Shown here: one piece after another, positions 5,407 to 47,179 of the stretch
Layout: each line of letters opens with the position of its first letter
Position numbering within the stretch: position 1 is the first letter of the stretch
Made by a program: the position numbers and the translations under genes
Notes under the pieces: generated by a model
The model's database searches: none
What the model was told of the DNA's origin: nothing
Seen by the model: the letters and a program-made list of their open reading frames with translations, nothing else
From: an uncultured Victivallales bacterium
GTDB lineage: Bacteria; Verrucomicrobiota; Lentisphaeria; Victivallales; UBA1829
Length of the DNA: 64,000 bases
Direction of reading: 5' to 3'
Assembly: GCA_934661375.1 (NCBI GenBank)
Contig: CAKUJH010000011.1
Span: 24,795-88,794 of the forward strand

Positions 5407-6201
5407 ATGGATGCTCTTCTGAAACAGACGCTGTCGGAACGTTTCCGGGAATATGTGCAGACTTTTGCCGTTCCCGGAAAGGAAACGCCGGGTCCCATTG
5501 TGCTGAAACAGGAGCATACTTTTGACGTATGTTCCATCATGGAGCGGATTGCGGAAAAGGAGGAACCTGATCCGCAGCGCCGGATGCTTTACTGGCTGTG
5601 CGCTCTGTTCCATGACGTTTCACGTTTTGAGCAGTACCGCGATTTCCATACGTTCAGCGATGACCGGTCCTTCGATCACGGGCAGCGGAGCGCGGAAATT
5701 TTCCTGCGTGATTTCGAGGTTCCCGGCTTGTCGGAAGCAGATCGCCGCATTGTTCATGATGCGGTTGCGTTTCACAATAAACTGCAGCTGCCGTCGGACA
5801 TGGATGCGCAGACCCTGGGACCCGCCAGAGCCATTCGCGACGCCGATAAGATTTCCATTCTGAAACTGCTGAACCGGCATTTCGCGCATTCGCTGATTTC
5901 CGAAGAGGAGACGGTGAATCTGAGCTTGCCCGATTCGCCCGGATTCACGGAGGAGCTGCGCCGGAAAGTTCTCCACGGTGAACCTGTGCTGTACCGGCTG
6001 ATGCGGAATGTCAATGATTTCAAGCTCAACATTTTCGGCTGGACTGCGGATTTCAATTACCCCGAATCCGCGCGGATTCTGCTGGAAGAAAAGATTTATG
6101 ACCGGACCCGGACTTTCCTTCCGGCGTCTCCGGAACTGGACGAAATGTGCGAAGTCTGCATGGCGCGTCTGAAAAGACTTGCCGAAGGAAAACGAGGCTG
6201 A
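5407..6201 (+). CDS. HD-domain phosphohydrolase family protein
   Basis: H..HD metal-binding signature (LYWLCALFHDVSRFEQY...FDHGQRSAEIF). Family-level call only. Confidence 0.5.
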   Translation: MDALLKQTLSERFREYVQTFAVPGKETPGPIVLKQEHTFDVCSIMERIAEKEEPDPQRRMLYWLCALFHDVSRFEQYRDFHTFSDDRSFDHGQRSAEIFLRDFEVPGLSEADRRIVHDAVAFHNKLQLPSDMDAQTLGPARAIRDADKISILKLLNRHFAHSLISEEETVNLSLPDSPGFTEELRRKVLHGEPVLYRLMRNVNDFKLNIFGWTADFNYPESARILLEEKIYDRTRTFLPASPELDEMCEVCMARLKRLAEGKRG

Positions 6202-7172: not shown

Positions 7173-7247
7173 ATTTCCGTTCATAAAAAACGGACAACGG
7201 GAGATATTTCCGCGTTGTCCGTGGTGGGAAAAAGGCAGATTCAAAGA

Positions 7248-9881
7248 TTATTTCCAGCCGCCGGGATATTGATCGAGCAGATTACCGATTTTTTCCCGGA
7301 CGGATTCCAGCTGTTCCCCATTGTATTCACGGGAGACCATTTTGCCGTCGTTGCGGGTTTCCCCTGCGATGACCTGCGGGATTTCCGCTTCGGCGCGGTT
7401 CACTTCTTTCAGCCAGTTGCGGAATGCTTTTTCCGTACGCTGCGCCGCTTCCGCTTTTTTGGCATCCAGCAGCAGGAAATATTCCATGTCTTCCAGACCG
7501 TCGCGCAGAACCGCCAGGCGCAGGGAACTGTAAATTCTGCCGTTCCGGGCATCGGGGTAGACCAGATATCCGTCGCCGTTGCCGTCCTGATACTGGTTGG
7601 CGTGCCATTGAACTTCCGGCCAGACTTTGCCTGTCTGCTTGCGGGTTCTCACCGCCTGATCCCAGAAACAGACGCCCCAATAGAGAAGACCGGTGATTTT
7701 ACGGGTACGGCACCACCAGAGCAGGGCGCGGTGCGTGAAGGCTTCATGGTCGATGAACAGGTTGTAACGGTTTTTGGGGATCACGCAGACATAACACCAG
7801 GCTTCATCGCCTTTTTTCACTCGTTCGGCAGCAAAATCCGGATTGAAGTTGGCGGTGAGCGGACACCAGATATTGACCGCCTCCACGGTTTCCGGAGTCA
7901 TGCGCTGAAGTTTGTAGCCGACGGCAAGGGTTTTCAGTTCCGGAGCGAATTTCCGGCTGTCCATGTACAGACGGTTCCATTCCGGTCCGTTGGATTCATC
8001 CCAGATATAGTGGTAGGCATATTTTTCCCAGCCGTTCTTTTTGGCATTTTCCCAGGCAGCCTGCAGGAAGTCGCGGTAGATGTTCTGGAATTCCGGATGC
8101 TTCATGCTGTACGGCAGCCGTTTCGCCTTGCCGGTCTTGGGATCGGTCAGCCACATGTACCCGAAATAGCGGTCCCAGGTCGGGCTGGGGGCAACATTGT
8201 AGCCGGTTCCGTGGAATTCATCCAGAATCATCCGGGTGATTTCGTTTTCCTTGGTGAAATCAAAATGATATTTGCCCTGCGCATCTTTCGTGGCGGTCCA
8301 GTTCGGCTGAAGCCAGGTCGGACGGTGTTCCAGCATGGGCATCAGAGTCAGACGGTTTTTCGCGGAGATTTCGATGATTTTGCGGGACATGGCTTTTTCG
8401 CCCTGCCAGTCCTTGATGCCGAAATATTCCAGCATGAAAACGCGGTTCAGGAAGAAGCAGGTGCGGAACTGTGAACGTTCCGGCAGGGAAAATTTCCGGA
8501 CGGAGATGTTCAGCATCATGACTGCTTCGGTTCCCGATTCTCCGGAGATGACCAGCTTCCCGCTGTAGGTTCCGGGTTTTGTATTGCCGTCTGCTTCGAC
8601 AGTGATCCAGAGCGGCTGATTCTTTCCGTTCAGGCGGATTTCGGATTTTTCCAGCGGGAGCAGGGGATCGGGATAAGAGGCTGTGCGTTCGTTGACCTGC
8701 GGATAGGCTCTGCGGTCGGACCGGATGTAGTCGACTTTTTCGAACTTCACTTCCGGAGCCTTGCTGTCCTGTGGAATCCAGCGGATTTTCAGGGTTTCCG
8801 GTTTGTCGGTCTGCGGCAGAAGCACCAGCTGAAGGTGTTCGGCTTCGCGGCGAGCCAGCGAAAGATTCAGTTCCAGCACATCCGCGTTGTCTTTCCATTC
8901 CGGCCGGATGTCATACTCGAAAACTTTCCGCATGGTGGATTCCGGAATGACAGCGAAACTTCCGGTGCGTCCGGCGAACAGTTTTTCCCGTGCGGCATTG
9001 AAGTTGCTCCGGTTGCAGAACAGACGCAGCTGTTCATTGGTGCGGATGACGTCATAGCAGTTGACTTCGCCGAGGCTGGCGGAATGGGAGAAAATACGGA
9101 ATCCCGGATTTTCCGGAGTGCGGAACACGATATCCGCGATGGTGCGTCCCGTTTTCCCGGTCGTGCGGAAAAACAGCTGTACCACCGGATCATCCGGAGT
9201 GCCGGGCTGAACGATCAGCTTGCCGACGCCCGGTGTGACTTTGCTGGAACGGATTTTTCCGGATTTGGAGACGGTCTCAACAATGACTTCGGGCGCGGGG
9301 CAGAATTTGTCCTTGCCCATACCGGTCAGCAGTTCGACCGGCTGGTTGAAAACGCCTTGGAAAGAGATCTGCGCCGCCTGTTCAGCGTCCAGATGGACAC
9401 CGGGGAGGTTTTCCTTCTGAACGGCAATTTCTTCCGGGCTCAGCGGGTGTTCGACAAAAGTGACCGCGGCAATGCTGCCGGGTTTGCCCATGCCGTCGGT
9501 GGTCAGGTAGTCGCGGGGATGAAGCCGGTCGCGGACCAGACGAATCTGTTTCCATTCCGGAGTGGAGATCCGGCGGTACGGTGTAACATAACCGGACCGC
9601 TGAACGCCATAGATGCCCATGGTGAAGTCTCCTTTGCAGAGAGCCAGCACATCATAGGTTTTTGTGTAGTCCATCATAACGGGCTTCCGGGGTTCCAGGA
9701 ACCATTGGACACTCCAGTCCCGTCCGACTTTGGCAACTTTGCCGGATGGCGCAGTGGGGTCGTCCGCCACGGATGCGCCGCGCATGTATCGGACATTCAT
9801 CTTATCCTGAGTGAAGGTCTGGTCTCCCAGAACGGTCAGTCCGCAGAACAGTGCCGCGGCAGCTAACAGCAAATATTTCAT
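7248..9881 (-). CDS. Secreted DUF4091/GH123-like glycoside-hydrolase-family protein (877 aa)
   Basis: Signal peptide MKYLLLAAAALFCGLTVLG. The C-terminal region (WDESNGPEW...GLLYWGVCFWD...LRDGLEDMEYF) resembles DUF4091, which is found in GH123-type proteins. The family assignment is from memory and could not be verified. Confidence 0.5.
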   Translation of the reverse strand: MKYLLLAAAALFCGLTVLGDQTFTQDKMNVRYMRGASVADDPTAPSGKVAKVGRDWSVQWFLEPRKPVMMDYTKTYDVLALCKGDFTMGIYGVQRSGYVTPYRRISTPEWKQIRLVRDRLHPRDYLTTDGMGKPGSIAAVTFVEHPLSPEEIAVQKENLPGVHLDAEQAAQISFQGVFNQPVELLTGMGKDKFCPAPEVIVETVSKSGKIRSSKVTPGVGKLIVQPGTPDDPVVQLFFRTTGKTGRTIADIVFRTPENPGFRIFSHSASLGEVNCYDVIRTNEQLRLFCNRSNFNAAREKLFAGRTGSFAVIPESTMRKVFEYDIRPEWKDNADVLELNLSLARREAEHLQLVLLPQTDKPETLKIRWIPQDSKAPEVKFEKVDYIRSDRRAYPQVNERTASYPDPLLPLEKSEIRLNGKNQPLWITVEADGNTKPGTYSGKLVISGESGTEAVMMLNISVRKFSLPERSQFRTCFFLNRVFMLEYFGIKDWQGEKAMSRKIIEISAKNRLTLMPMLEHRPTWLQPNWTATKDAQGKYHFDFTKENEITRMILDEFHGTGYNVAPSPTWDRYFGYMWLTDPKTGKAKRLPYSMKHPEFQNIYRDFLQAAWENAKKNGWEKYAYHYIWDESNGPEWNRLYMDSRKFAPELKTLAVGYKLQRMTPETVEAVNIWCPLTANFNPDFAAERVKKGDEAWCYVCVIPKNRYNLFIDHEAFTHRALLWWCRTRKITGLLYWGVCFWDQAVRTRKQTGKVWPEVQWHANQYQDGNGDGYLVYPDARNGRIYSSLRLAVLRDGLEDMEYFLLLDAKKAEAAQRTEKAFRNWLKEVNRAEAEIPQVIAGETRNDGKMVSREYNGEQLESVREKIGNLLDQYPGGWK

Positions 9882-9922: not shown

Positions 9923-10675
9923 TCAATACCAGAGATATGCACCGTTTCCTTTTACCATTGTGGGGATGAACTGCTGCGGTTTCATCAGCGATACACTTCC
10001 ATCCGCCATGGCGGTGCTTCCCGCAAAGGAATGCCGGCGGGCGGCAGTGGAGAACAGCAGCCATCTTTCATCTCCGCCTTTGACGTAGCAGAGATACCAG
10101 ATGTTTTCCACACTGTCCAGTTTGTGGATCAGCTTGTTGCTGTCCCAGTAGGATTCACGGAATTCGATGGTGCGGGAGGGTTCCTTGATGCTGGCGCGTT
10201 TTTTGTTGGATTTTGTTCCGACAGCCCATTTGGGCGTGATACCGCCGGCGAGCAGAGCATTGACCTGATAGCTCAGCAGGGTTCCGACCGGCGGACGTTT
10301 GGCGTTGGTGTCATGGAATATGTTGCTCAGGGAGGTGCTGCACGCCATGACTTTGCCGGTTACGTATTTGTTGTCGCGCAGCAGACTGAAGTAGTTGGAG
10401 TTGTCAGACCACATGCCGAGCGGGATGCGTCCCTGATAATCGTTGCTGTACATGTTGCCAGCCAGGGCGATCTGCTTTGCCTGGGAGACGCAGTTGATGC
10501 CCTGTGCTTTTTCCCGTGCAGCTTTCAGCGCAGGTAGCAGCATTCCCGCCAGAATGGCAATGATCGCAATCACCACGAGGAGTTCTATTAATGTGAACCT
10601 CAACGGTTTACGATTCAAGTATGAGGTGTGAAATATGAAATATGAAATGGATGATAATGCTTTTTGTCTGATCAT
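9923..10675 (-). CDS. Prepilin-type N-terminal cleavage/methylation domain protein (DUF1559-like pseudopilin), paralog 1
   Basis: [26 protein letters not shown] hydrophobic N-terminal helix preceded by a ~24-aa leader. The downstream region is typical of PVC DUF1559 proteins. Confidence 0.8.
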
Positions 10676-15630: not shown

Positions 15631-16125
15631 TTGGAGACTGCAATGAAGAAAAAAACACTGCTGCTGGCAGGTCTGCTGGCTTCGGGAATGTTTGCCGTTC
15701 TGGCGTCATCTCCGGACAAGAACACCACTGAACAGCTGCGCCGTGAGATCCGGAAAACTTATCCGAAAGCGGAAAAACTGGATTTCAGCCGTGCCGGACG
15801 GGTTTATCTGTCGGACAAGGATGGAAAGCCGCTGGGACATGTCCGCTATACGCATCCGCTGTCCGCCGGAGCCAGAGGTTTCCGCGGTCCGGTTCCGGTG
15901 ATGGTCATGCTGGATGCGTCGGGAAAAGTGCTTACGGTATCTCTGCTGTCCTGCCGCGAAGATTCATCATTCCTGCGGAAACTGTACCGTGCGGAATATT
16001 TTGACAGCTGGAGCGGATTTTCCCGTGCGGATGCGGCGGAACTGGACGTGGACGGTGTAACCGGAGCTACGTTCAGCAGCAAAGCCGCGGCGGAATCTGT
16101 GCGGTCATTGCTGCGGGAAAAATGA
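15631..16125 (+). CDS. Secreted FMN-binding domain protein
   Basis: Signal peptide. A VDGVTGATFSSKA motif matches the FMN_bind (RnfG/NosR-type) covalent FMN attachment region. Confidence 0.65.
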   Translation: METAMKKKTLLLAGLLASGMFAVLASSPDKNTTEQLRREIRKTYPKAEKLDFSRAGRVYLSDKDGKPLGHVRYTHPLSAGARGFRGPVPVMVMLDASGKVLTVSLLSCREDSSFLRKLYRAEYFDSWSGFSRADAAELDVDGVTGATFSSKAAAESVRSLLREK

Positions 16126-17138
16126 AAAGACAGGAGGTCGCAATGAATCAGAATAAAATCCAGATGCCGGAACCGGTGCGGAAATTCCGGGAATCATTTT
16201 TCCGGCTGAAAGATGAATTGTCCCGGGTTTTTGTGGGACATGATGAACTGATCACCGATCTGCTCGGAGCCGTCATGGCGGACGGGCATGTCCTGCTGGA
16301 AGGTGTTCCGGGGCTGGGGAAAACTCTGCTGGCGCGGAGTCTGGCGGGATGTCTTGACCTGAAATTTTCCCGCATACAGTTTACGCCGGATCTGATGCCT
16401 GCCGATATCACCGGCTCGCTTCAACTGCAGGAGGACGCCGCCGGAGTACCGCGTCTGACATTCCGTCCGGGGCCGCTGCTGGCGAACTTTGTGCTGGCGG
16501 ATGAAATCAACCGTGCGACGCCCCGTACGCAATCCGCCCTGCTGGAAGCGATGCAGGAACACCAGATCACAGCGGGCGACCGCACCATGAAAATTCCGGA
16601 ACCGTTCACGGTGATTGCTACGCAGAACCCGATTGAACAGGAAGGAACATATCCGCTGCCGGAAGCGGAACTGGACCGTTTTATCATCAAATTGAATCTG
16701 GGATACCCGCGCGAGGAAGAGTACAGCCGGATTCTGGACCTTACCACCGGAACCGCCGACAGCGGCGTTCATGCGGTCTGCACCGGAGAAGAAGTGCTGG
16801 AAATGCGCCGTACAGTCCGGTCTGTTCTGGCAGAGGAAAATGCGAAAAGCTATGCCGTGCATTGGGTTATGTCGACGCAGCCGGATTCGGAATACTGTCC
16901 GGCGGAATGCCGGGACATGCTGTTGCGCGGAGCCGGTCCGCGGGCGGCGCAGGGCATGATTCTGATGAGTAAAGTGTACGCGCTGCTGGACGGGCGCACC
17001 GCCATCGGTCCAGCGGATCTTGACCGTGCCGCCCTGCCGGTTCTGCGGCATCGTATTGCTCTGCGTTTCGAAGCGCAGATGTCCGGAGAAACGCCGGACT
17101 CCGTGCTGAACCGGCTTCATGAAGGTCTGCGGAAATGA
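16122..17138 (+). CDS. MoxR-family AAA+ ATPase
   Basis: Walker A (GVPGLGKT), Walker B (LADEINRA), the conserved block IATQNPIEQEGTYPLPEAELDRF, and the C-terminal MoxR lid. Confidence 0.9.
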   Translation: MKRQEVAMNQNKIQMPEPVRKFRESFFRLKDELSRVFVGHDELITDLLGAVMADGHVLLEGVPGLGKTLLARSLAGCLDLKFSRIQFTPDLMPADITGSLQLQEDAAGVPRLTFRPGPLLANFVLADEINRATPRTQSALLEAMQEHQITAGDRTMKIPEPFTVIATQNPIEQEGTYPLPEAELDRFIIKLNLGYPREEEYSRILDLTTGTADSGVHAVCTGEEVLEMRRTVRSVLAEENAKSYAVHWVMSTQPDSEYCPAECRDMLLRGAGPRAAQGMILMSKVYALLDGRTAIGPADLDRAALPVLRHRIALRFEAQMSGETPDSVLNRLHEGLRK

Positions 17139-17992
17139 ATCCTGAATCCGAACTGTTTCCTCCGGAATTGCTTCAGGCGGCGTCTTTGTGCCGTCCTGCA
17201 CCCGAAAACGGCGGCATGAATTTTTCCGCCGGGCGGCATCGTTCGCCGTATCGCGGAGACAGTGCGGAATTTCAGGATTACCGGGCGTATGTTCCCGGAG
17301 ATGATTTACGCCGGGTGGACTGGAATATATTCCGGCGTTCCCGCAAACTGCTGTTGCGTCAATATCGGAATTTCCCGCAGAAAAAACACCGGATCATTCT
17401 GGACGGTTCGGCATCGATCCGATTTCGGAACTGCCGCGTGCAGACGGTCTGGCGTCTGGCGGCTCTGCTGGGGGGTACTCTGCTCTGCAGCGGAGACGGG
17501 GTTACGCTGTCCTGTGCGGACCGGATTTATCCGTTTGCGCCGGGACGTCCTGCACTGGCAGGATTCATTTCCGCACTGCTGGAAGAATACCGGCGTCCGG
17601 CTTCCGCCGCACCGTCATTCCGTTTCCCCTCCGGTTGTCACAACTGGCTCATTTCTGATTTTATGGATCCTGCCGGGCTGGCGCATCTGAAAAAAACTTT
17701 CATGACCTGTCGCGGTTTTACACCGGTTCGGATTTTTGAACAAAGCGAACTGCATCCGGAATGGATTGGCGAAATCCGGCTGACCGATGCGGAAAGCCGG
17801 GCGGAAATTACGGTGTCCCCGGAACCTGAACAGCTGAAACGGTATCAGAAACAGCTGAAACGTTTTGAAAAAATGCTGGAAATCCCGGCACGGCGGGCGG
17901 AAAGCAGGGTACTGGCTTTTGATGCGGGGCTTCCGGTTTCAGAACTGATCTGCTGTTTTCAGCAGGAATTTTTCCCGGAGGTGCAGAAATGA
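17135..17992 (+). CDS. DUF58 protein (MoxR partner)
   Basis: YVPGDDLRRVDWNIFRRSRKLLLRQY motif. Gene overlaps and is coupled with the MoxR gene. Confidence 0.8.
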   Translation: MNPESELFPPELLQAASLCRPAPENGGMNFSAGRHRSPYRGDSAEFQDYRAYVPGDDLRRVDWNIFRRSRKLLLRQYRNFPQKKHRIILDGSASIRFRNCRVQTVWRLAALLGGTLLCSGDGVTLSCADRIYPFAPGRPALAGFISALLEEYRRPASAAPSFRFPSGCHNWLISDFMDPAGLAHLKKTFMTCRGFTPVRIFEQSELHPEWIGEIRLTDAESRAEITVSPEPEQLKRYQKQLKRFEKMLEIPARRAESRVLAFDAGLPVSELICCFQQEFFPEVQK

Positions 17993-18918
17993 TTGCGCAG
18001 GGGATTTCATGGCTGACCGCCGGATGCGCCGCGCTGGCGGCATTGGCGGCATTGCTGATTCTGCATTTTCTGCGGACACGTATTCCCGGACAGGTTGTAC
18101 CGTCCATCATGCTCTGGCTGGAAGCGGAGGCATTGCCGGTCCGGCGGATTCTGCTGGAAAAACTGTCGCGGCTGTTGAGTCTGCCGCTGCTGGCGATACT
18201 GGCGGCTCTGGCGGCATTGACGGAGCCGGTGTGGACGTCCGGGGAAAAAGTTTCGCGCATGGTGATCGCTGCCGAACCGGATTGTCTGCCGGAAGCGGAA
18301 CGGCTGTTGCGGCAGCATGATCCTTTGCAGACATCATTGATTCTGGTGTCCGGGGCAGGGGTGGTGCTTCATGATTTCGGAGAACGGAAACAGCCGGTTG
18401 TTCTGCCGGAAAAAATATTTGCGGCGGAACCGGATTCGGCGTCTGCACTGGCGGGGCGTCTGGCGGGATCGGACGGCATGGTCTGCTGGCTGGGCGCATC
18501 CGAACCGCCCTGGCTGCCGGAAAATTCTCTGTACATCCGGAAGGGATTGCCGGAAACGGAAAGTCGGAATGCCGCACTGAAAACCTGTTTCCGGAATGCG
18601 CCGGAAAAATTTATCCGCCAATGGAAAGCCGTAGACGGCGTGAAGACAGTTCCGGAAAAACAGGCGGAACTGATCCTGAACTGTACGCTGTCCGAAAATG
18701 CGTCGTCCGGCGAAATCGAAGCGGAAATGGAACGCTGTTTTGATTTGCTGATGCGTTCCGGTTTGTACGAATCCGGAGGAAAACAGCAGTATCTGTTGTC
18801 CGGAACTGCGGACGCTCCCCGTTCCGGCGCCTGGCGTCTGACCGGCTGGCTGTTCGGATTGGCATTGCTGGCTGCATTGCTGGAACTCGTTCTGTGGCAT
18901 AAACATAAAACCGTGTAG
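17989..18918 (+). CDS. BatA_N-like (aerotolerance-operon N-terminal double-TM domain) membrane protein without vWA domain
   Basis: N-terminal pattern LAALLILHFLRTR...PSIMLWL...LLAILAALAALTEPVW resembles the BatA N-terminal domain. Translationally coupled to neighbours. Confidence 0.5.
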   Translation: MIAQGISWLTAGCAALAALAALLILHFLRTRIPGQVVPSIMLWLEAEALPVRRILLEKLSRLLSLPLLAILAALAALTEPVWTSGEKVSRMVIAAEPDCLPEAERLLRQHDPLQTSLILVSGAGVVLHDFGERKQPVVLPEKIFAAEPDSASALAGRLAGSDGMVCWLGASEPPWLPENSLYIRKGLPETESRNAALKTCFRNAPEKFIRQWKAVDGVKTVPEKQAELILNCTLSENASSGEIEAEMERCFDLLMRSGLYESGGKQQYLLSGTADAPRSGAWRLTGWLFGLALLAALLELVLWHKHKTV

Positions 18919-18931
18919 GAAGGATGACGGT

Positions 18932-21900
18932 ATGCAGCTGTATTTTATGGATTTATGGAGTTTATGGTTTCTGCTTCCCGGCGCGGGATGCTTTTTCCTG
19001 CTGCGGCGACGGGGGGTACGGTTCTGGCAGGGTATGATGATTCTCTGTCTGATTCTGGCAGCGTCCGGACCGGTGCTGCGCTGGACTGGAACGGAGCCGG
19101 AAACTCTGCTGCTGACCGAACGGATACCGGGAGTGAAAACGGATATTCCGGCGGATTTGCAGCGGCGTGCCGGGGTGCGGCAGCGGGATTACACCGGAAG
19201 CACGGCGGCAGCGCTGGCGGATGCCGGAGCCGGATTCCGTTCCGGAAACGGCGGCGAAATTCATCTGTTCAGCACGTTTCATGAAACTTCCGGTTCGGTG
19301 TCCCGTTCCGCCGCGGCGCTGAACCGGCGGAACATCCGGGTTATTGCGCATTCGCAGACGCCCGAAAAAATCCGGCGTCCGGTTCTGCGCGGATTAAGCT
19401 GCAATCCAGCGGCAGGCTGCGGAGAACGGATCCGGCTTGAAGCCGAATTGGCGGTTCCGCATCCGTCCGAAACGGAGTTGAAACTGTGCCGCGCCGACGG
19501 CAGAGTCCTGACTTCCCGGCGCATTGCGTCCCGTCCGGACGGTCTGTCGCGGACAAGTCTGGAGTTTTCGCTGTCAGAACCGGGCGAATATGCCCTGCGG
19601 CTGGAGTTGGACGGTGCTGCCGCCGCGGAGATTCATCTTGCCGTATCTGCACCGTACCGTGCCGTTCTGATTTCTGCACAGCCGGAACTGGAACTGCCGG
19701 CATTGCGGGAGCTGTTCCGCGGAGCGGAAATCGAACTCCGGGAACCGTCCCGGAAATTTTCCTCCGCGGCATTGCTGGTGATCGGTGAAGGCGGCGTACG
19801 TACGTTGAAAGCGTCTGAACTGAAAGAACTTGCCGAAACGGTAAAAAACGGCGCCGGACTGCTGTACTTTGCCGGGACGGACATTCCGTTTGCGGAAGAA
19901 AAACTGCCGTCCGCGTTTCGGGAACTGCTGCCCGTCCGTTATGCCGGAAAAAATCTGAACCGGATGCCGACGACCGCGCTGGCAATCATCATTGATACAT
20001 CGGGCAGCATGAGCGGCACCCGGCTGGCATTGGCGCGGGAGACTGCGCGTCTGGCGCTGGACAAGCTCCGTGACTGCGACATGGCGGGGATCGTGGAATT
20101 TCACGGCCGCCGCCGCTGGGCGGCGCCGCTCCAGAGTGCCGCCAATCATCTGGAACTGCATCGGGCTCTCAACCGTCTGAACGCCGGCGGCGGGACGGTG
20201 ATTCTGCCAGCCTTGCAGGAGGCATTTTACGCTTTGCGCAATGCCGACGCGCGCCTGAAACATGTTCTCATCATTACCGACGGCGGCGTGGAGCAAGGCG
20301 ATTTTGAAGGTCTGCTGCGGCGCATGGCGGAGAACGATATTACCGTGTCAACCGTCATGACCGGGAGCGGACAAAGCCCGTTTCTGAGCCGTCTTGCCTG
20401 GTGGGGCGGCGGGCGTTTCTACACGGCATCCAGCCGTTTTGCTCTGCCGGAACTGGCTTTCCGGCAATCGGGCAGAGAGTCGCTTCCGCCGTTCCGTACC
20501 GGCCCGTTTTCTCCGGAAGTCCACAGCGGCTGGCAGCTGTTTTCCGGACTGTCATCTGTACCGTCTGTTCCCGGCGTGCTGGAAAATACACTGGCGTCCG
20601 GAGCGGAGGAAGCGATCCGCGCGGGACAGCAGCCGCTGATTGCTCTGCGCCGTGCGGGAGCGGGAATGGTCTGCGCGGTGAATACCGGTCTGTCCGGGGA
20701 TGTCATGCAGAACTTTTACCGTCAGCCGGCGGTTGCCGGAATGTTTTCCGCATTGGGGCGTTCTCTGCCGGATCCTGTTCGGATGCAGCCGTTTGCGGTT
20801 CGGGATTATTCCGTTCTGCAGGATATTCATTTCCGGTTTGAACGGGCTGGACAGATTCCATATCTTTATGCGGAATTGTCTGCACCGTCCGGAAAAACGG
20901 AGCGTTACCGTCTTGAACGGGCGGCGGATCAGACATTTCATTTCCGGCGTTACGGATTGCCGGAAGGAACATATCACCTGAAAATTTCAGAAACTGCGGA
21001 TATGCGCAATCCGCTCCAGTTTCCGTTTGATTCCTTCGCTGCGCCGGCGTCCGGCTGGACTGCGGAAGATCACCGGACTGCGGAAGAAATCACGCGGCGT
21101 TCGCTTCTTTTGCCGGAACCGGGAGCAGCAATACGGCAGTTTTATCTGCGTCCGGTGTTCGGCGGACTTTTCATCCTGCTGATGCTGGTGCAGCTTCTGC
21201 TGCGCCGTCTGCCGTCGCGTCTGGCTCTGACTGCCGGACTGCTTTGCGTGAGCTGTCTGGTGTTCGGCGGCGAGTATGAAACTCAGTTGAAGAACGGATT
21301 GCTGGGCCATCAGCCGGAAACGGCGTTTCGTCTGGCGGCGGAGAAGGCAAGAACTGCTTCCGATCTCCGTTTTGCTCTGCTGCTGGAATTGGAAACAGCC
21401 CGGAATCATGGACATCAGGAGGAACTGCTCCGCCGTTGGTCCGCCCTGTCTGCCATGGAACCGGAACGTCTGGAACTGCTGGTCAACGCCTGTGAAGATG
21501 CGGGACAGCCGGAACGTGCTCTGGCTGTGCTGAAACAGCATGGCGGCGGTCTGGATGGACGTTTTGCACCGACGCTGATCCGTCTGGCGGAGAAATGCGG
21601 CAGGAGTGATCTGTTGCGCACGGAGATTCAGCAGCAGCTGAAACGGAATCCGCGTTCAATGTTTCTGCTGAATGCGGCGTTCCGTCTGGAACTGCTGGCA
21701 GGACGTCGTGCGGCGGCGGAGGAATTGCTGGATCAGCGGCTGAAAACGGAGAATGACCCCGCTGTTCTGCGTCTGCTGGCAGAATCAGCGGAGAAAGCCG
21801 CGCTTTATTCCTGTGCCGAGCGTATTCTGCGGAAAGAGGAACAGGTTTCCGCGGAAGGAGTCTGGCCCGCCCGGTTCCGCCGCATGGATCTGGCTGTTCA

Positions 21901-24900
21901 CCGCGGTGATCCTGCCGGAGCCGTAAAGCTGCTGCGGAGTTTTGCCGCAGAAAAAAATCTGTCCCGTGGAATTCTGCTGAACCTTGCCGACCGCTGTGAA
22001 CAATACGGCGATTCCGTGACCGCACTGGAGCTGTACCGCCGGGCTGGCAGTGAAGACGCCCGGATTCGTGCCGCTATGCTGCTGGAAGGTCTGGGACGGA
22101 ATCCGGAAGCCGCAAAACTCTGGAATGAGGTGTTCCGCACTTCGGAAAATGAAATGCGCGCGCGTCAGGCGATGGAACGTCTGCTGGATTTGTCTGCCGC
22201 CGCCGGGAAACTGCCGGAAACCGCTGCCGCACTGGAACAGAAATTGAAGCAGAAGCCGTCATTGCGTCTTAAAACTTTTTATGCGCACGTGCTGTTCCGA
22301 GCCAATCGGCTGGATGAGCTGTTCCATTATCTGGATCTTCAGGAAAAAAACGGTGAAACCGGACTTGCCGGGCTGAAACTTTCTTTCCTGCTGTCGGCAC
22401 GCCGGTACAAAGAAGCGTCAGCTCTGCTGGAACAGAAAAAAACGGCGGATCCGGAAAAACGCGCGGAAATACTGCGTCATCAGGTTCTGATTGCCGTTGA
22501 AGCCGGTGACAAGACTTTGGCACACCGGGCAGCGGATGAGCTGCTGCGCATTGCGCCCCGCCGTGCCGACGCGCTGGAATTTGCCGCCGGGGTATATTCT
22601 CTGCTGAATGAGCCGGCGAAAGCGGTGGAAATGTATGATGAGTGCCTGAAAGAAAATCCGTCGCGGATTGAATTGTATCTGCTTCGCGCCAAAGCGCAGA
22701 AGGCTGCCGGAGCGGGCAGGCGGGCCCAGGCGTTTTTCGTGGAGAAACTGCGGGAACCGGTTTCCGCGGATTTCTTCGGAATTGCGGCGGACGGTCTGCT
22801 GGATCTGAATGTTCCGAAAGAAGTTCTGCGGCAAGTGCTGGCGGAAACCATGAAACGGCTCAACGCCGATCCGGAACTGCTGTTCTATTACCGTTTGGCG
22901 GAAGACCTGGCGGAGGAACTGGGCGACCGGGCGGTGTGGCGTCATCTTCAGCTGCTTCAGCTGGCTGCGGCACCGGAACGGCGCACTCTTCTGCTGCGCG
23001 GTTTATATGAGGATGCTGTGGTCTGCGGACGCCGGAAAGATTCGTTCCGTCTGGCGCGCCTGTTGTCCGGATGGAATGAAATCTATCCGCCGGAATTGTA
23101 CCGGTCATTGTCGGGTGAACTCACGGAAAACGGATTTTTCGCCGCGGCGGAACGTTGTGTCCGTCAGGCGGATGCAGCGGAAAACAGCAGCCGGCATCTG
23201 TTTGCCTTGACGCAGGTCTGTCTGGATGCCGGACGACCGGCGGATGCGGCACGGATTTGCCGGGAACTGCTGAGTCTGTCTCCGGACTCTCCGGAGTATC
23301 TGATCCGGTATGCCGAGGTTCTGGAAATATCCGGAGAATACCGCCGTGCCGGTGAACAGAATCTGCGTGCGTTGTCGCTGCTGGCGTCCCGTATGGTGCT
23401 GGATCAGGGGCAGGGCAAAGGGAGCAGCAGTGCCGTGTTTGAACGCCAGATCCGCCCGGTGATCTGCGCCTTTGCTAATCAGTTTGTTCTGTGTCCGGGG
23501 GTATTTGATGCAGAGCTTGCCGTTCTGGAAAAGACTGCCGGAGCCGCCGCCCGCCGCCGGGTGTGGAATCCTCTGCGGAAACGCATGAATGCACTGACCG
23601 GTTTGCCGGTTCCGTCTGCGGTCCGGAGGAATGCCGTGCCGGGCAGCCGTCCGGTTCCCGCTGATGTGCTGGCATACCGTCTGGCAGTTCTGCCGGAAAC
23701 GGAAGCCGTAAAGGAAGTGGAACAGACCTTCCGGAAATTATCCGCCGGACAGCGTTCTCCGTATTGGGAGCGGCTGGTTGGTTCGCTGTGTGCCGAGCCG
23801 CCGGCGCGCGTGTCGGCAGTACTGGAACGGGAATTGACCCGGCTGACTTTCCGGAATACCGGTATCCGCTGGCAGTTTTCCGCTTACGGGCTGGCATTGA
23901 AACGCAAGTATGCGGAACTGTTTCTGAAAAAGTTTCCGGAGTCTCTCCATGCCTTGTCCCTTGCCGCGCAAATCCGTTATCTGACCGGCGATCCTGCGGG
24001 AGCGCGTCTGCTGGCAGGGGAAGTGTATGAACGTTTTGCCGGACTTGTCGAAGTGAAGTTTCCGGAATACCGCGCCGGTTTGGAGCTAAACCGGATTTTT
24101 GCCGCAGCGGACAGCGAAGCGGAAAACGCCGGGAAACATGCCCGGAGCGAGTTGCAGGCTTCCGTGGAGTCGGACCGGAAACTGCTGGGCGATACTCCGG
24201 CGCGGACTTTGACCGCCGTGCTTCTGCTGAAAGGCGAAGGGAAATATGACGCTGCACTGGATGAGCTGTTCCGTCTCTGGAAAAACGGGGAACGCGGACT
24301 GGTGGTTTTCCGATTGTCGGAGGAACTGACCGTCCGCACTGGCCGTTACCGTGAATGGCTGGAACTGCTTTCCTCCTATGAAACCAAAGATGTTTCGGTT
24401 CGAGTGCTTGCCGCCCGGCGGCAGGTGCAGCTGTTCCGGGATGTGGGGGAATACCAGCGGGCGCGGCAGAGTCTGCCGATGCTGGCGGTTCCGCTTCAGA
24501 AAAGGGAACGGCTGCTGACGGAACGTTTTATGCTTTCACCGGAAAGATTTGCCGCAGGACTGCGTAGCTTCCTGATCGGCCAATGCCGTACCGGACAGTT
24601 CGTCGGTTTTTATGCGGACAGTTTCGGGACGGATGGTCTGACCGGTTACAGACTGCGCGGCGGACGGCGTGCGAATTTGCTGCCGGAACTGGCGGTGCGC
24701 GACCGTGCTTTGAATGATACTCTGGGCAGTCTGCTGCGCGGAACCCCTGTTGCGGAACGCGGATTCGCTGTACTGTTTGAAGCCTGGCGGAATACTCTGC
24801 CGGGAAACGGGAACCCGCATTCCGCCGGCACGGAAAAAACGGTTCCTGCTCTGCTGGCAATGCGGACCGTTTCCGGCGGATCTTATCATGCCGGAGAGAT

Positions 24901-25681
24901 TGCCATGGCGGAAAAACTGATCCGCAATTCCGCCGTTCCGGTGGAAAACGCTGTCATCTTTCTGGATATACTGCCGCGAGCCGGGCAGTCCTCTGCCGCG
25001 GCAGGTCTGGCGGAACGGGTGCTTCAGTCGCCGCAGCCGTCGAAACAGCGCGAACTCCTGGAGTCTCTGCTGAAACGGATGGAACCGCAGAAACGGCGTG
25101 CTGTCCTGCTGCGTCTGGCTTCGCTGATTCCGGAAAATGACTGTGCTCTGCGGGTTTTCTGGCTCGGCATGACACGCACTTATGAACCGTCCCTGCTGCC
25201 GGAAATGCGCGGTCTGCTGTGCCGTCCGGCTGTTTTTCCTGCGGATACGGAATTGTATCTGCTGTATGGACAAGGTTCTGCACAGGAACGGATTCTACGT
25301 TTTCTGACGGTTGCGGAACGTTATCCGGACTGGCAGATTCTGTTCCTGATTCCGGATGAAACGGAAAAACAGTCTCTGGCGGATGCCGCGGAAAAAGCTC
25401 TGGAAACTGCTTTGCGCCGGGGGCTGCTGCCCGAAGATGAACTGGTTCGGCATTATGTCCTGCTGTCTGTTGCAGACCCCGTCCGGAAAGCATACTGGCA
25501 GACCCGTGCCGCCTTGCATGACCGTCAGCCGGGGGAAAGTTCCCTGTGGCGTCTGGACAGTCTGGAAAATCCGGCGGAACGTGCCGCTTTGCTGAAAAAA
25601 TTATCTTCTGCCGGACGGCTTCCGCCGCAGCGCAGAAATACAAACCAAAACCCTGTTACAGGAAAGGAATCCCTGCAATGA
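18932..25681 (+). CDS. Giant (2249 aa) BatA/BatB-like protein: N-terminal double-TM domain, vWA domain with MIDAS, internal TM segment, ~1400-aa TPR/alpha-solenoid array
   Basis: vWA: IIIDTSGSMSG...TVILPALQEAFYAL...HVLIITDGG. TM near aa 745-785. Long Leu/Ala/Arg-rich helical repeats follow. A single uninterrupted ORF. Confidence 0.8.
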   Translation: MQLYFMDLWSLWFLLPGAGCFFLLRRRGVRFWQGMMILCLILAASGPVLRWTGTEPETLLLTERIPGVKTDIPADLQRRAGVRQRDYTGSTAAALADAGAGFRSGNGGEIHLFSTFHETSGSVSRSAAALNRRNIRVIAHSQTPEKIRRPVLRGLSCNPAAGCGERIRLEAELAVPHPSETELKLCRADGRVLTSRRIASRPDGLSRTSLEFSLSEPGEYALRLELDGAAAAEIHLAVSAPYRAVLISAQPELELPALRELFRGAEIELREPSRKFSSAALLVIGEGGVRTLKASELKELAETVKNGAGLLYFAGTDIPFAEEKLPSAFRELLPVRYAGKNLNRMPTTALAIIIDTSGSMSGTRLALARETARLALDKLRDCDMAGIVEFHGRRRWAAPLQSAANHLELHRALNRLNAGGGTVILPALQEAFYALRNADARLKHVLIITDGGVEQGDFEGLLRRMAENDITVSTVMTGSGQSPFLSRLAWWGGGRFYTASSRFALPELAFRQSGRESLPPFRTGPFSPEVHSGWQLFSGLSSVPSVPGVLENTLASGAEEAIRAGQQPLIALRRAGAGMVCAVNTGLSGDVMQNFYRQPAVAGMFSALGRSLPDPVRMQPFAVRDYSVLQDIHFRFERAGQIPYLYAELSAPSGKTERYRLERAADQTFHFRRYGLPEGTYHLKISETADMRNPLQFPFDSFAAPASGWTAEDHRTAEEITRRSLLLPEPGAAIRQFYLRPVFGGLFILLMLVQLLLRRLPSRLALTAGLLCVSCLVFGGEYETQLKNGLLGHQPETAFRLAAEKARTASDLRFALLLELETARNHGHQEELLRRWSALSAMEPERLELLVNACEDAGQPERALAVLKQHGGGLDGRFAPTLIRLAEKCGRSDLLRTEIQQQLKRNPRSMFLLNAAFRLELLAGRRAAAEELLDQRLKTENDPAVLRLLAESAEKAALYSCAERILRKEEQVSAEGVWPARFRRMDLAVHRGDPAGAVKLLRSFAAEKNLSRGILLNLADRCEQYGDSVTALELYRRAGSEDARIRAAMLLEGLGRNPEAAKLWNEVFRTSENEMRARQAMERLLDLSAAAGKLPETAAALEQKLKQKPSLRLKTFYAHVLFRANRLDELFHYLDLQEKNGETGLAGLKLSFLLSARRYKEASALLEQKKTADPEKRAEILRHQVLIAVEAGDKTLAHRAADELLRIAPRRADALEFAAGVYSLLNEPAKAVEMYDECLKENPSRIELYLLRAKAQKAAGAGRRAQAFFVEKLREPVSADFFGIAADGLLDLNVPKEVLRQVLAETMKRLNADPELLFYYRLAEDLAEELGDRAVWRHLQLLQLAAAPERRTLLLRGLYEDAVVCGRRKDSFRLARLLSGWNEIYPPELYRSLSGELTENGFFAAAERCVRQADAAENSSRHLFALTQVCLDAGRPADAARICRELLSLSPDSPEYLIRYAEVLEISGEYRRAGEQNLRALSLLASRMVLDQGQGKGSSSAVFERQIRPVICAFANQFVLCPGVFDAELAVLEKTAGAAARRRVWNPLRKRMNALTGLPVPSAVRRNAVPGSRPVPADVLAYRLAVLPETEAVKEVEQTFRKLSAGQRSPYWERLVGSLCAEPPARVSAVLERELTRLTFRNTGIRWQFSAYGLALKRKYAELFLKKFPESLHALSLAAQIRYLTGDPAGARLLAGEVYERFAGLVEVKFPEYRAGLELNRIFAAADSEAENAGKHARSELQASVESDRKLLGDTPARTLTAVLLLKGEGKYDAALDELFRLWKNGERGLVVFRLSEELTVRTGRYREWLELLSSYETKDVSVRVLAARRQVQLFRDVGEYQRARQSLPMLAVPLQKRERLLTERFMLSPERFAAGLRSFLIGQCRTGQFVGFYADSFGTDGLTGYRLRGGRRANLLPELAVRDRALNDTLGSLLRGTPVAERGFAVLFEAWRNTLPGNGNPHSAGTEKTVPALLAMRTVSGGSYHAGEIAMAEKLIRNSAVPVENAVIFLDILPRAGQSSAAAGLAERVLQSPQPSKQRELLESLLKRMEPQKRRAVLLRLASLIPENDCALRVFWLGMTRTYEPSLLPEMRGLLCRPAVFPADTELYLLYGQGSAQERILRFLTVAERYPDWQILFLIPDETEKQSLADAAEKALETALRRGLLPEDELVRHYVLLSVADPVRKAYWQTRAALHDRQPGESSLWRLDSLENPAERAALLKKLSSAGRLPPQRRNTNQNPVTGKESLQ

Positions 25682-30119: not shown

Positions 30120-30779
30120 ATGAACCGTCGGGAATTCATCAAATCTTCACTGATCGTTTCCGTCGTGGCGGGAACCGCTGCTGTCGGCGGTTCTCTCCTG
30201 AACGCATTTGCCGCTGAACCTGTGCCGCAGAAAAGGAGAAATGGAAAAATGAAAATTCTGGTGCTTACGGGCAGTCCCCGTAAAAACGGCAATTCCAGTA
30301 CCCTCGCTTCGGAGTTCATCCGCGGCGCGGAGGAAGCCGGACATGAAGTCGTGCGTTTCGACGCTGCGTTCAAAAAAGTGCATCCGTGCATTGCCTGCAA
30401 CCAGTGCGGCATGAACGGTCCGTGTGTATTCAAAGATGACTTTGAATTCGTCCGCAAACACATTGTCGATGCGGACTGCGTGGTGTTTGCGACTCCGATG
30501 TACTATTTTGGAATCTCCGCCCAGCTCAAAGCGGTGATAGACCGTTTTTACGCAATCAACGGCGAGATACACCGTCCGAAGAAAGCCGTGCTGCTGATGA
30601 CGTATGCCAATACCGCGGTTTCGGAAGCGGACCCGATCCGTTCGCATTATGATGTTCTGCTGAAATATCTCGGCTGGAGCGATGCCGGACGGGTGATTGC
30701 GCGGGGTGTCTGGCCGGTCGGCGCAGTCAACCGAACAAAATATCCGGCGCAGGCGTACCAGCTCGGAAAAAATATCTGA
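30120..30779 (+). CDS. Tat-signal flavodoxin-like fold NAD(P)H-dependent FMN reductase / iron-sulfur flavoprotein
   Basis: Twin-arginine motif (MNRREFIKSSLIV...AFA). MKILVLTGSPRKNGNSS and CIACNQCGMNGPC. Confidence 0.75.
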   Translation: MNRREFIKSSLIVSVVAGTAAVGGSLLNAFAAEPVPQKRRNGKMKILVLTGSPRKNGNSSTLASEFIRGAEEAGHEVVRFDAAFKKVHPCIACNQCGMNGPCVFKDDFEFVRKHIVDADCVVFATPMYYFGISAQLKAVIDRFYAINGEIHRPKKAVLLMTYANTAVSEADPIRSHYDVLLKYLGWSDAGRVIARGVWPVGAVNRTKYPAQAYQLGKNI

Positions 30780-30811
30780 AAACATTTTCCGGAGATTTTT
30801 TTCAAGTCGGC

Positions 30812-30841
30812 TTGACTTACAGTAACTTGAATGTGTATATT
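30812..30841 (+). promoter_or_regulatory. Sigma70-like promoter (TTGACT, 18 nt, TATATT) upstream of the DXS-like gene
   Basis: Near-consensus hexamers with 18-nt spacing; coordinates approximate. Confidence 0.45.
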
Positions 30842-30881
30842 GCCTGAATGAAACAGAAAACACAGTGAAAGGAAAGAAAAT

Positions 30882-32627: not shown

Positions 32628-32746
32628 GTTTCCGGCTGAACGTATCTTTTTTTGGAAAAAATACATTTTTTTCTGAAAAAAGAATTGGCATCACGCAACA
32701 GCAAGGAGTAAATTGCAGTCTGTAAAATAAACGACAGAGGGAAGTC

Positions 32747-46202: not shown

Positions 46203-46228
46203 CAACCTCAAAATGAAAGGATATAAAA

Positions 46229-47167: not shown

Positions 47168-47179
47168 ACCGGAGCCGCC

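Follow-up and report, generated by a model that had tools for sequence, protein, structure and literature searches.

Type IV pilins and T2SS pseudopilins (GspG/H-type) carry Phe at +1, Thr at +2, Glu at +5 and a hydrophobic helix of ca. 20 residues, and fold into a long N-terminal helix followed by an α/β head. We describe here three pilin-like proteins, P1, P2 and P3, encoded in a 64-kb stretch of DNA (hereafter, the window), which share these sequence traits and, according to a model of P1, the arrangement of helix and head; their HMM matches are confined to the N-terminus, and they depart from the known proteins in having a long leader and an unconstrained position −1, with neither Gly nor Ala. 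Furthermore, whereas pilus and T2SS genes are clustered, the Lentisphaeria genes are scattered singly in enzyme operons. In type IVb prepilins, Gly is retained at −1 and the residue at +1 is variable. Those of CofA and TcpA also combine a long leader with a larger head domain, and pilins of this type gave our best, albeit weak, structural match; in contrast, F+1 is invariant in the proteins studied here, the leader is Gly-free and sequence similarity does not extend beyond the helix.

The hugely expanded DUF1559/H-X9-DG families of the PVC superphylum likewise combine a prepilin-type N-terminus with a variable domain of ca. 200 aa and a C-terminal H-x9-DG motif. Nevertheless, members of the Planctomycete and Verrucomicrobia types retain Gly or Ala at −1 and are often arranged in tandem pilin arrays, and the window proteins fall below the Pfam cut-off and have no listed match to TIGR04294 at E ≤ 0.01. 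Pilin genes adjoining CAZyme genes occur in the fibre degraders Caldicellulosiruptor and Ruminococcus, where type IV pili are encoded beside glycan-degradation loci; these are complete pilus operons serving many enzymes, as opposed to the single pilin-like gene per enzyme operon, many times per genome, reported here. Searches of the literature on DUF1559, H-X9-DG, pilins of Victivallis or Lentisphaerae and pseudopilins together with CAZymes yielded no description of this architecture or of the leader.

Three pilin-like genes and their operons

P1 (positions 9923–10675, minus strand) codes for 250 aa, comprising a 26-aa leader, an FTLIELL TM helix, an α/β domain and an H-x9-DG motif; P2 (45396–46202, plus strand) codes for 268 aa, with a 19-aa leader (45396–45452), and P3 (60576–61367, plus strand) for 263 aa, with a 26-aa leader (60576–60653) and the motif in the form H-x9-DS. 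No other FTLIELL-type N-terminus appeared in a six-frame translation of the window. These are the ORFs located in an earlier reading of the DNA made without database searches (the sequence-only reading), and the common long leader that it described ahead of FTLIELL was confirmed, with L-R directly before F in each protein; the leader measures 19 to 26 aa and contains no Gly. The leader of P2 is a short form, lacking 21 nt (exactly three heptads) with respect to P1-type leaders. A GGA-type SD lies 8–10 nt ahead of the ATG of the three genes; the more extended RBS string attributed to them, GGAACCAGA[TC]CATGAAC, is exact in P3 and has one mismatch in P2, but P1 contains no match within three mismatches (overall, 3 matches versus 0.39 expected by chance).

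Each of P1, P2 and P3 heads a small operon adjoining a regulator gene, and is followed in it by one or more genes for glycan-active enzymes that bear a Sec signal. P1 is followed after 41 nt by the gene for a GH123-like secreted protein of 877 aa (7248–9881, minus strand; GH123_cat, formerly DUF4091), and P3, after 47 nt, by the gene for a secreted DUF4838 + CBM9 protein of 845 aa (61415–63952, plus strand). The sequence-only reading had every pilin-like gene immediately followed by a protein of 845–1262 aa, which holds for these two but not for P2, where a gene for a 312-aa signal-bearing protein without Pfam family (46229–47167, plus strand) precedes the third gene of the operon, coding for a secreted LamG/GHL10/Malectin protein of 1262 aa (47180–50968, plus strand). 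The three large proteins are encoded in the orientation of their pilin and have hydrophobic, signal-like N-termini, and no terminator-like site was found on the coding strand between pilin and enzyme, including the gap between P1 and the GH123 gene. Immediately 5′ of P2 there are genes for a LacI-type (Peripla_BP) regulator and an ADP-ribosylglycohydrolase (42816–45307, plus strand), a synteny kept in a diverged orthologous locus (L216), whereas a gene for a GntR-HTH/periplasmic-binding-type regulator (59214–60269, minus strand) is divergent from P3. Between the latter two, a sigma-70-like promoter, TTGACA-16-TATAAT (60389–60416, plus strand), ca. 160 nt before the ATG of P3, and a divergent promoter-like site directed toward the regulator gene (60327–60300) were recognized as consensus matches only. 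The 64-kb window contains no gene for a prepilin peptidase or for T2SS components.

P1–P3 are ordinary members of a very large type IV pilin/pseudopilin-like family of Lentisphaeria (Victivallales, gut): the window pilins have 7992 relatives which, where named, are from Victivallales/Lentisphaeria, and in a representative search (330,785 proteins at E ≤ 0.001) the leader was covered in 116 of the best 150. An AF2 model of P1 comprises a helix (residues 29–79) and a globular domain, with medium confidence (pLDDT 72), and a Foldseek search of the PDB indicated weak similarity to type IVb pilins, the best match being 9iuf_A (E = 0.096, TM 0.30–0.35). The label DUF1559 used in the sequence-only reading is sub-threshold, since P1 and P2 score 20.9 and 23.0 bits with PF07596 (DUF1559, SBP_bac_10; cut-off 23.3), over profile positions 2–64 of 268 only, and P3 gave no match in the profile search; many relatives carry precomputed PF07596 matches. 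The H-x9-D[GS] motif is present in the three proteins, with H215 invariant and D225 at least 90 % conserved in an alignment of 100 sequences, despite which TIGR04294 is not among the matches listed for them. The GspH model TIGR01708 reaches 22–25 bits, versus 80 required, and its match is confined to the N-terminal 30 residues. NCBI names cluster members as GspH-type T2SS minor pseudopilins.

Pairing with secreted CAZymes

Pairing was evaluated in 179 pilin-like genes of three classes, from ca. 2 Mb of related loci, by asking for a next co-directional gene at no more than 130 nt, of at least 500 aa and with a hydrophobic N-terminus. Such a large secreted neighbour was found 3′ of 12 of the 17 genes with the long leader and of 36 of the 95 other genes lacking Gly or Ala at −1 (Lentisphaeria-type), versus 5 of the 67 Gly/Ala-type pilins (Fisher p = 2e-7 and 7e-6, respectively). 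Likewise, in called-gene tables, products of at least 500 aa were encoded by five of the six genes 3′ of a pilin and by 10 of 80 other genes (p = 5e-4). The partners are mostly CAZymes, and the pair of a P1-type pilin and a GH123 protein recurs at 75 and 34 % pilin identity. The association of pilins and secreted glycan-active proteins noticed in the sequence-only reading is thus borne out by the enrichment, which goes against the possibility, raised in the same reading, of adjacency expected by chance: pilin-CAZyme pairing is a strong, general pattern in Lentisphaeria that the abundance of the genes does not account for.

The residue at −1

P1–P3 contain Arg at −1, where class III signals have Gly or, rarely, Ala, together with Phe+1, Glu+5, the hydrophobic helix and a (near-)invariant N-terminal TM motif. 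All three exceed the cut-off of TIGR02532 (20.7–22.0 bits versus 16.3), and with PF07963 (N_methyl) P1 is above the cut-off (21.6 versus 21.2) and P2 and P3 are below it (19.7 and 19.6). The lack of Gly at −1 was presented in the sequence-only reading as a special trait of the long leader; the absence is real, but it extends to the whole lineage. In an unbiased scan, only 5 of 65 Lentisphaeria-type pilin genes had G at −1, a position occupied by 16 different residues, whereas 73 of 79 genes of other pilin types had G or A; these counts do not come from the genome scan, in which the number of R at −1 was inflated because one of the scan patterns was RFTLIELLV. Similarly, among taxon-labelled contigs, G was found at −1 in 6 of 94 Lentisphaeria genes, and G or A in 23 of 23 from Verrucomicrobia. 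RRR|F and KRR|F occur, too, in the minor-pseudopilin cassette of a Victivallis genome. From these comparisons, Gly at −1 appears to be dispensable throughout Lentisphaeria.

Nucleotide-level conservation of the leader

Translation reads the long leader in frame with the pilin, starting at an SD-linked ATG: 27 of 28 leader-type genes have such a codon in frame with Phe+1, with leaders of 18–54 codons (p = 2e-12). Within it, entropy is alike at the three codon positions (1.32/1.22/1.31), as opposed to the TM segment (0.12/0.03/0.93), and autocorrelation peaks at lags of 7, 14 and 21 nt (0.47, 0.43 and 0.37, over a background of ca. 0.25–0.3); the frame in which one 14-nt unit is read varies, giving SYFI or SHISY. 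The conserved element has two parts. One is a G-free tract, made up of about four imperfect NNNTCAT heptads, which is pyrimidine-rich on the sense strand in all 28 genes. The other, ...TGAAGCGTAAA, is the 5′ arm of a hairpin spanning the leader/mature junction, whose 3′ arm is made of codons −1, +1 (Phe) and +2 (Thr) plus the first base of +3. In P1, the leader-coding segment (10598–10675, minus strand) includes the G-free heptad tract (10617–10659) and a degenerate junction hairpin (ca. 10592–10612), and carries the longest G-free run of the window (43 nt in 64 kb).

The hairpin has a mean MFE of −11.3, compared with −5.96 ± 0.53 under synonymous recoding, and 88 % of its cells are paired, versus 29–45 % in slid controls. 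Double changes affect 19 cells, versus 8.9 ± 1.8 in shuffles (0/500), a comparison that is not corrected for shared ancestry. RNAalifold predicted nine pairs from an ungapped subset and none from the gapped MAFFT alignment of the 28 sequences. Among 116 distinct leaders, T after KRK is accompanied by R at −1 in 48 of 55 cases, and M by H in 12 of 13 (Fisher p = 5e-12, from counts that ignore shared ancestry); the codons concerned pair with each other, ACG (T) with CGT (R) and ATG (M) with CAT (H), indicating that the residue at −1 is dictated by the hairpin. Mismatches consist of 17 G·U versus 3 A·C, which points to sense-strand RNA. Taken together, these patterns show a leader that is apparently conserved as a sense-strand nucleic-acid element and not as a peptide, and in this leader family base pairing, rather than a peptidase rule, probably sets Arg or His at −1 and Cys at −2.

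The element is poorly kept in the window itself. The junction hairpins are degenerate in all three copies, with MFEs of −6.2 (P1), −9.5 and −6.9, not significant versus synonymous recoding, and the heptad tract is best preserved in P1, its G-free character being partly lost in P2 and P3, so that this genome may be losing the element or may be able to do without it. Searches with Rfam 15 gave no match at the gathering score in the window, and no relevant match at E ≤ 1 with the eight loci having the best-kept element. Sequestration of the SD by the CU-rich tract was considered and discarded, because in single-sequence folds GAAAGG pairs with CUUUC in some genes but inconsistently.

Pyrimidine-rich, non-triplet coding repeats are known in leader-peptide regions, such as the CTCTT repeats of Neisseria opa genes. 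The heptad tract resembles these in being G-poor, pyrimidine-rich, of non-triplet period and situated in the signal-coding part of a surface-protein gene; it differs in its approximately four imperfect units and in the lack of copy-number polymorphism. Periodic single-strand RNA-binding sites include the NAG-N4 repeats of HutP, the heptamers of cold-shock proteins and the YC-rich rut sites of Rho, and the 7-nt period found here would suit a putative oligomeric or tandem single-strand binder.

Exchange of the 5′ module

The 5′ module, consisting of promoter/UTR, leader and the first ca. 15 mature codons, is exchanged between paralogues and strains, with the crossover in the near-invariant TM-coding segment. 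Orthologues of P1 at ca. 80 % identity carry MRI|F leaders, and clusters of P2 and P3 at 90 % identity or higher include members with unrelated leaders, having P, F, A, R or K at −1. The clearest case is strain L215, where the mature part of P3 and its DUF4838 partner are 99 % identical to those of the window, whereas the leader and the promoter/intergenic region are unrelated and the divergent regulator, a paralogue replacing the GntR-type gene, is only 45 % identical. Here the crossover is located inside the TM-coding segment, ca. 45 nt 3′ of the hairpin, as expected from ordinary homologous exchange.

Leader differences within clusters are whole-leader replacements, not changes in repeat number. 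Phase variation by heptad slippage was rejected because no leader-length polymorphism occurs in the clusters (250, 268 and 263 aa are kept), as was an inverton or long inverted repeat, because a significant reverse-complement copy of the tract exists upstream in only ca. 4 of 28 loci, likely as debris of pilin 5′ ends.

Possible role of the pilin-like genes and their leader

We favour an explanation, with a probability of roughly 0.6 for the whole of it, in which these are pilins of enzyme operons that bear a translated, swappable leader element working at the RNA level, the mRNA being controlled through it and the pilin serving the enzyme. The leader element would act on the mRNA to place the pilin-enzyme operons under shared post-transcriptional control. 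In the version that we prefer, the G-free, YC-rich tract would be a platform for Rho or a single-strand RNA-binding protein, accessible whenever ribosomes are not translating the leader, with the hairpin modulating the effect; the leader peptide would be a by-product, removed or tolerated. The pilin-like protein could be handled by the T2SS/T4P-type machinery of the lineage despite the lack of Gly at −1, and would serve the co-encoded enzyme, whether as an adaptor for secretion or surface display or as a partner that binds glycans.

If this is correct, the rule of Gly at −1 in prepilin processing, regarded as near-universal, would be broken in a whole bacterial class, implying either a changed peptidase specificity or pilin-like proteins that work unprocessed in Lentisphaeria. 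A conserved "signal-peptide motif" would be in fact an RNA element hitch-hiking in codons whose peptide is irrelevant, advising caution in motif-based annotation, and the element would be a candidate new cis-regulatory RNA of gut Victivallales. Operons with one pilin per enzyme would also offer a testable handle on the function of DUF1559/H-X9-DG proteins in the PVC superphylum, and the module swap at 99 % identity would show glycan-degradation cassettes being re-wired to new regulators in gut populations. A bolder and rather doubtful extension is a PUL-like glycan system of Lentisphaeria, in which hundreds of "prepilins" independent of Gly at −1 would each partner one secreted CAZyme as its secretion or display adaptor, UCAU heptads and junction hairpin in dispensable leader codons would put all the operons under one control at the post-transcriptional level, and the near-invariant 5′ segment of the pilin gene would be a portable homology region that re-wires enzyme cassettes to other regulators or promoters.

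Alternative explanations

Two other explanations concern the leader as a coding sequence. The sequence-only reading pointed to the LSSI leader as an extended signal peptide of class III with a specialised function, which would define a pseudopilin subfamily recognised by its own Gly-independent peptidase or sorting system. Although the leader is present in the three window genes and recurs in more than 100 protein clusters, with a length (19–26 aa) like that of type IVb prepilins, whose pilins are also the best fold matches, we consider this very improbable: the motif resolves into a nucleotide heptad repeat and a hairpin, with no codon-level constraint and one unit read in two frames, the coupling of M with H and of T with R obeys base pairing, unrelated leaders precede orthologues and ≥ 90 %-identical alleles of one and the same pilin, and residues other than Gly at −1 are equally common in short-leader Lentisphaeria pilins. 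The same reading conceded that the start codon might be miscalled, in which case the conserved tract would be 5′ UTR and initiation would occur near the junction, at the TTG or CTG of ...YLKRK, at the TTG that the window copies have ahead of RF, or at the ATG of KRK-M...H variants. There are indications in this direction, since the L codon ahead of KRK is TTG or CTG in 19 of 23 genes, in locus L169 the upstream ATG is replaced by ATT and an in-frame ATG lies within the stem, NCBI annotation begins one P3 relative at Met14, and the short leaders usual in the lineage resemble MK[KR]xx|F. Even so, it is quite improbable: the well-spaced GGA-type SD and its ATG stay in frame in 27 of 28 genes despite many indels, where a separate uORF would predict one third, length changes in stem and loop are all multiples of three, the internal candidates have no SD because the tract is G-free, and the L position is TCG in P3 and TTT in locus L018.

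An action on DNA, as a recombination or inversion site for module swapping or phase variation, through heptad slippage like that of the Neisseria opa repeats or as an operator for a global LacI-type repressor, is improbable, in spite of swap breakpoints adjoining the element, incomplete copies of the tract or of pilin 5′ ends in inverted orientation 200–500 nt upstream in loci L114, L148, L089 and L214, 20 proteins with more than one FTLIELL module, the difference of exactly three heptads between P2- and P1-type leaders, and the hairpin arm GTAAAACG/CGTTTTAC, which resembles LacI-family half-sites. Both the excess of G·U over A·C mismatches and the constant pyrimidine-rich sense strand favour RNA over DNA, upstream inverted copies are significant in few loci, the crossover in L215 falls past the hairpin, the heptads are few and imperfect, and leader length is constant among the 23–50 members of each cluster, whole-leader replacements aside. 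Finally, the pairing on which the favoured RNA-level explanation draws could be attributed to chance, as pilin-like genes and CAZymes are both very abundant in these genomes and CAZymes are frequent in the examined loci. Besides, the similarity of pilin C-domains tracks that of the partner enzymes weakly, a modest though significant signal of co-evolution (2/2000 permutations) that rests on a few recent duplicates, one of them being the same locus sampled twice. We regard chance adjacency as extremely improbable in view of the enrichment in both data sets and of the short intergenic gaps between co-directional genes; moreover, the pair is kept at 34 % pilin identity and has moved as one unit between strains.

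Three pilin-like genes from a large family

The three paralogous genes proposed by the sequence-only reading are present at 9923-10675 (-) (P1), 45396-46202 (+) (P2) and 60576-61367 (+) (P3), and theirs are the only FTLIELL-type N-termini found in any frame of the window. Alignment of their products shows M..Q.LSSI in common, followed by a 7-residue indel, [KN]R[KN].LR and an invariant stretch; the C-terminal two thirds align poorly, overall identity is 35-41%, and an H-x9-D[GS] motif lies close to each C-terminus. An alignment of 100 sequences shows (near-)invariance of H215 and D225. Pfam and NCBIfam recognised the prepilin-type N-terminus alone, with TIGR02532 scoring above its cut-off in all three proteins and N_methyl in P1 only; the label DUF1559 was too generous, P1 and P2 falling just below the cut-off and P3 giving no match. 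The protein family is already known (prepilin N-terminus plus DUF1559/H-X9-DG), the members in the window missing some of its formal thresholds. An AlphaFold model of P1 (pLDDT 72) has a helix (residues 29-79) and an a/b head; its best matches among solved structures are type IVb pilins, but these are weak (E=0.096).

Many gut-metagenome contigs carry identical proteins, the relatives that bear names are from Victivallales or Lentisphaeria, and a search with an N-terminal profile retrieved 330,785 cluster representatives at E<=0.001. P1-P3 are therefore one corner of a giant expansion of pilin-like proteins in the PVC group. No T2SS, T4P or prepilin-peptidase genes occur in the window.

Residue at position -1

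As had been claimed, Gly is missing at -1, the last residue before the Phe that starts the conserved TM segment (F+1), and indeed from the entire leaders of P1, P2 and P3. Among the 120 closest proteins this position is occupied by R (70), G (16), H (9), I (7) and others. A metagenome scan, unbiased for this residue because its pattern lies downstream of the Phe codon, found Gly in 5/65 pilins with a Lentisphaeria-type TM tail, which use 16 different residues, and Gly or Ala in 73/79 of all other pilin types. Likewise, on taxon-labelled genome contigs, where the count of R is inflated by one scan pattern, G occurs in 6/94 Lentisphaeria versus G/A in 23/23 Verrucomicrobia. The absence of Gly thus characterises the lineage rather than the LSSI leader. 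Since F+1 and E+5 remain invariant, the machinery of the lineage would probably still handle these pilin-like proteins. An unconstrained -1 position across a lineage appears not to be described in the searchable literature or Rfam.

A Verru_Chthon-type minor-pseudopilin cassette from a Victivallis genome (locus L037, 13469-19278, +; D, a PilV-like gene, C and a 1113-aa A/GspK-like gene) has RRR/F and KRR/F junctions (the slash separates leader and mature part), its pseudopilin-like members having Arg, not Gly, at -1. The P1 residue itself (window 10598-10600) is polymorphic within its cluster of at least 90% identity (members P0121-P0133), Arg and Lys alleles both being common.

The leader is conserved as nucleotide sequence

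The relatives' leaders follow the consensus ...S(S/Y)(L/F)I(S/F/P)H(I/T/L)SYLKRKxxxR/F, with 116 distinct leaders of the LSSI/SYLKRK kind among 307 proteins. In their DNA, NNNTCAT heptads make up a tract without G, and NNNTGAAGCGTAAA comes behind it, as in CTCATAT TTCATAT CTCATAT TTCATAT TTGAAACG and ACCTCAT CTCTCAT ACCTCAT CTCTCAT ACCTGAAGCG; the LSSI of the window leaders (TTATCATCCATT) is part of this tract, and the P1 leader holds the longest G-free run in the window (43 nt). Entropy by codon position is flat in the leader (1.32/1.22/1.31) and shows the classic coding pattern in the adjoining TM segment (0.12/0.03/0.93), self-similarity of the leader peaks at lags 7, 14 and 21, and one 14-nt unit occurs in two frames, encoding SYFI and SHISY. 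Conservation therefore acts at the nucleotide level, and the idea of the LSSI leader as a specialised protein signal is not supported.

The leader is nevertheless translated. In 27/28 genes (p=2e-12) Phe+1 shares its frame with an ATG that has a well-spaced SD before it, the sole exception (L169) having ATT in its place, and this frame is kept over leader lengths of 18-54 codons despite structured in-frame insertions, which argues against a miscalled start and use of a shorter in-frame one. P1, P2 and P3 have a GGA-type SD 8-10 nt 5' of the ATG; the common RBS string described for them is exact in P3 and has one mismatch in P2, and P1 has no match within three mismatches. Leaders from five loci (L076, L099, L106, L150, L186) contain an in-frame insertion of ca. 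36 nt encoding LSSIARRAEEDH, with its own strong hairpin (TCCTCC..GCTC gca GAGC..GGAGGA), and a second insert module, SDQ(Q/S)SV(F/I)SNQ, was seen in L168 and L173 as well as in several proteins.

A hairpin spans the leader/mature junction

The 5' arm, GCGTAAA(N3-5), covers codons R-K-T/M/P/S, and its reverse complement is the 3' arm, (N3-5)TTTACGC, which comprises the -1, Phe and Thr codons plus the first base of Leu; examples are GTAAAACGGC gt GCCGTTTTAC, GCGTAAAATGCC tc GGCATTTTACGC and GCGTAAACCG ttg CGGTTTACGC. Mean stem stability is -11.3, versus -5.96+-0.53 for synonymous recodings of the identical peptides; standard pairs fill 88% of pair cells versus 29-45% in slid controls, and double-sided changes in the stem exceed those in all 500 shuffles. 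RNAalifold recovered 9 pairs from the ungapped subset and none from the gapped alignment. The pairing leaves a trace in the protein (T...R in 48/55, M...H in 12/13; Fisher p=5e-12) and accounts for the frequent Cys at -2. Mismatches are G.U (17) more often than A.C (3), which points to sense-strand RNA. The stems of P1, P2 and P3 are weak versions, individually not significant. No Rfam family matches the leader element, and a leader-encoded combination of heptads and hairpin also appears to be new to the searchable literature.

Leaders are exchanged as modules

Orthologues of P1 with ca. 80% identity have MRI/F leaders, and the P2 and P3 clusters (at least 90% identity) include alleles with unrelated leaders (MSKKSRKSFICQKCDF/F, MKITQDYKRKMFRKP/F, MAGTRR/F, ...GTMKA/F). 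A strain with a copy of the P3 operon (L215) matches the window at 99% identity in the mature pilin part and the DUF4838 enzyme. Its regulator is a paralogue with 45% identity, its intergenic region and leader are not related to those of the window, and the identity starts within the TM-coding segment. Some genes are preceded by partial or inverted pilin 5' fragments, and some ORFs have two or three N-terminal modules, which look like debris of leader-module exchange or recombination; the upstream fragments are significant in only about 4/28 loci. Such remnants lie 200-500 nt before intact leader-type genes and are either shortened pilin 5' ends (e.g., MKTWSAAAPMDTVRDRRD/FTLIELLAG...) or heptad tracts in reverse complement; they occur in L114 (1062-1187, -; 1047-1090, +), L148 (ca. 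720-765) and L214 (ca. 5830-5886).

Operons with secreted enzymes and a possible role of the leader

Direct adjacency to a large secreted protein was confirmed for P1, followed by a GH123_cat (former DUF4091) protein of 877 aa, and P3, followed by a DUF4838+CBM9 protein of 845 aa. P2 does not adjoin its LamG/GHL10/Malectin protein (1262 aa) because a gene for a 312-aa protein intervenes, conserved in this place even in the diverged locus L216. The downstream genes start 26-47 nt behind the preceding gene, and all their products have hydrophobic signal-like N-termini. The 312-aa protein (46229-47167, +) matches no Pfam or NCBIfam family, and its N-terminus (..VILGCALSASALA) is that of a signal-bearing protein or possibly of a lipoprotein.

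Called-gene tables show a recurring layout of regulator (AraC, GntR/LacI-PBP), pilin-like gene, large secreted protein and sometimes further GH genes. Among 41 scanned partner proteins the commonest family is DUF4838 (10), then GH5 (4), LamG, CBM9 and GH42 (3 each), GH67N and GH2 (2 each), and PL8, GH109, GH123, GH71, GH99, GH20 and GH39 (1 each). For Gly/Ala-type pilins of other phyla, the next gene is another pilin in 15/67 cases. On the coding strand, pilin and enzyme have no terminator-like site between them, and a consensus sigma-70-like promoter lies ca. 160 nt upstream of P3. Operons pairing one pilin with one CAZyme, with re-wiring of the regulator, seem likewise absent from the searchable literature and Rfam. 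The operon's 3' border differs among strains: immediately behind the GH123 gene, L002 (13895-18275) has a 731-aa gene plus the restriction-modification genes RE_MjaI and N6_N4 methyltransferase, and other strains have ABC/HD/RNase Y genes (cf. L001, 13504 onward).

We infer that the leader element could be a cis-acting mRNA signal common to these operons. In the version that we prefer, the tract would offer Rho or an RNA-binding protein a single-stranded platform, accessible while no translation of the leader takes place, and the hairpin would modulate this putative binding. The leader peptide would be irrelevant, and the pilin-like protein may serve the adjoining enzyme.

Other features of the window

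The product of the rho gene (51400-53517, -) is unusually long (705-710 aa) and has Rho_N, Rho_RNA_bind and ATP-synt_ab domains; it is of interest because the leader tracts are G-free and C/U-rich. Upstream of the P1 region lies a Bat-like cluster (16122-25681, +) with MoxR-type AAA, DUF58, 311-aa and 2249-aa VWA/TPR genes. On the strand opposite real genes, very long ORFs without stops occur at 46208-50059 (-), 43793-45295 (-), 30147-32666 (-) and 7215-8474 (+); one of 1283 aa is antisense to the LamG gene (1262 aa) and one of 500 aa to an ADP-ribosylglycohydrolase gene (496 aa). These ORFs are probably an effect of codon usage.
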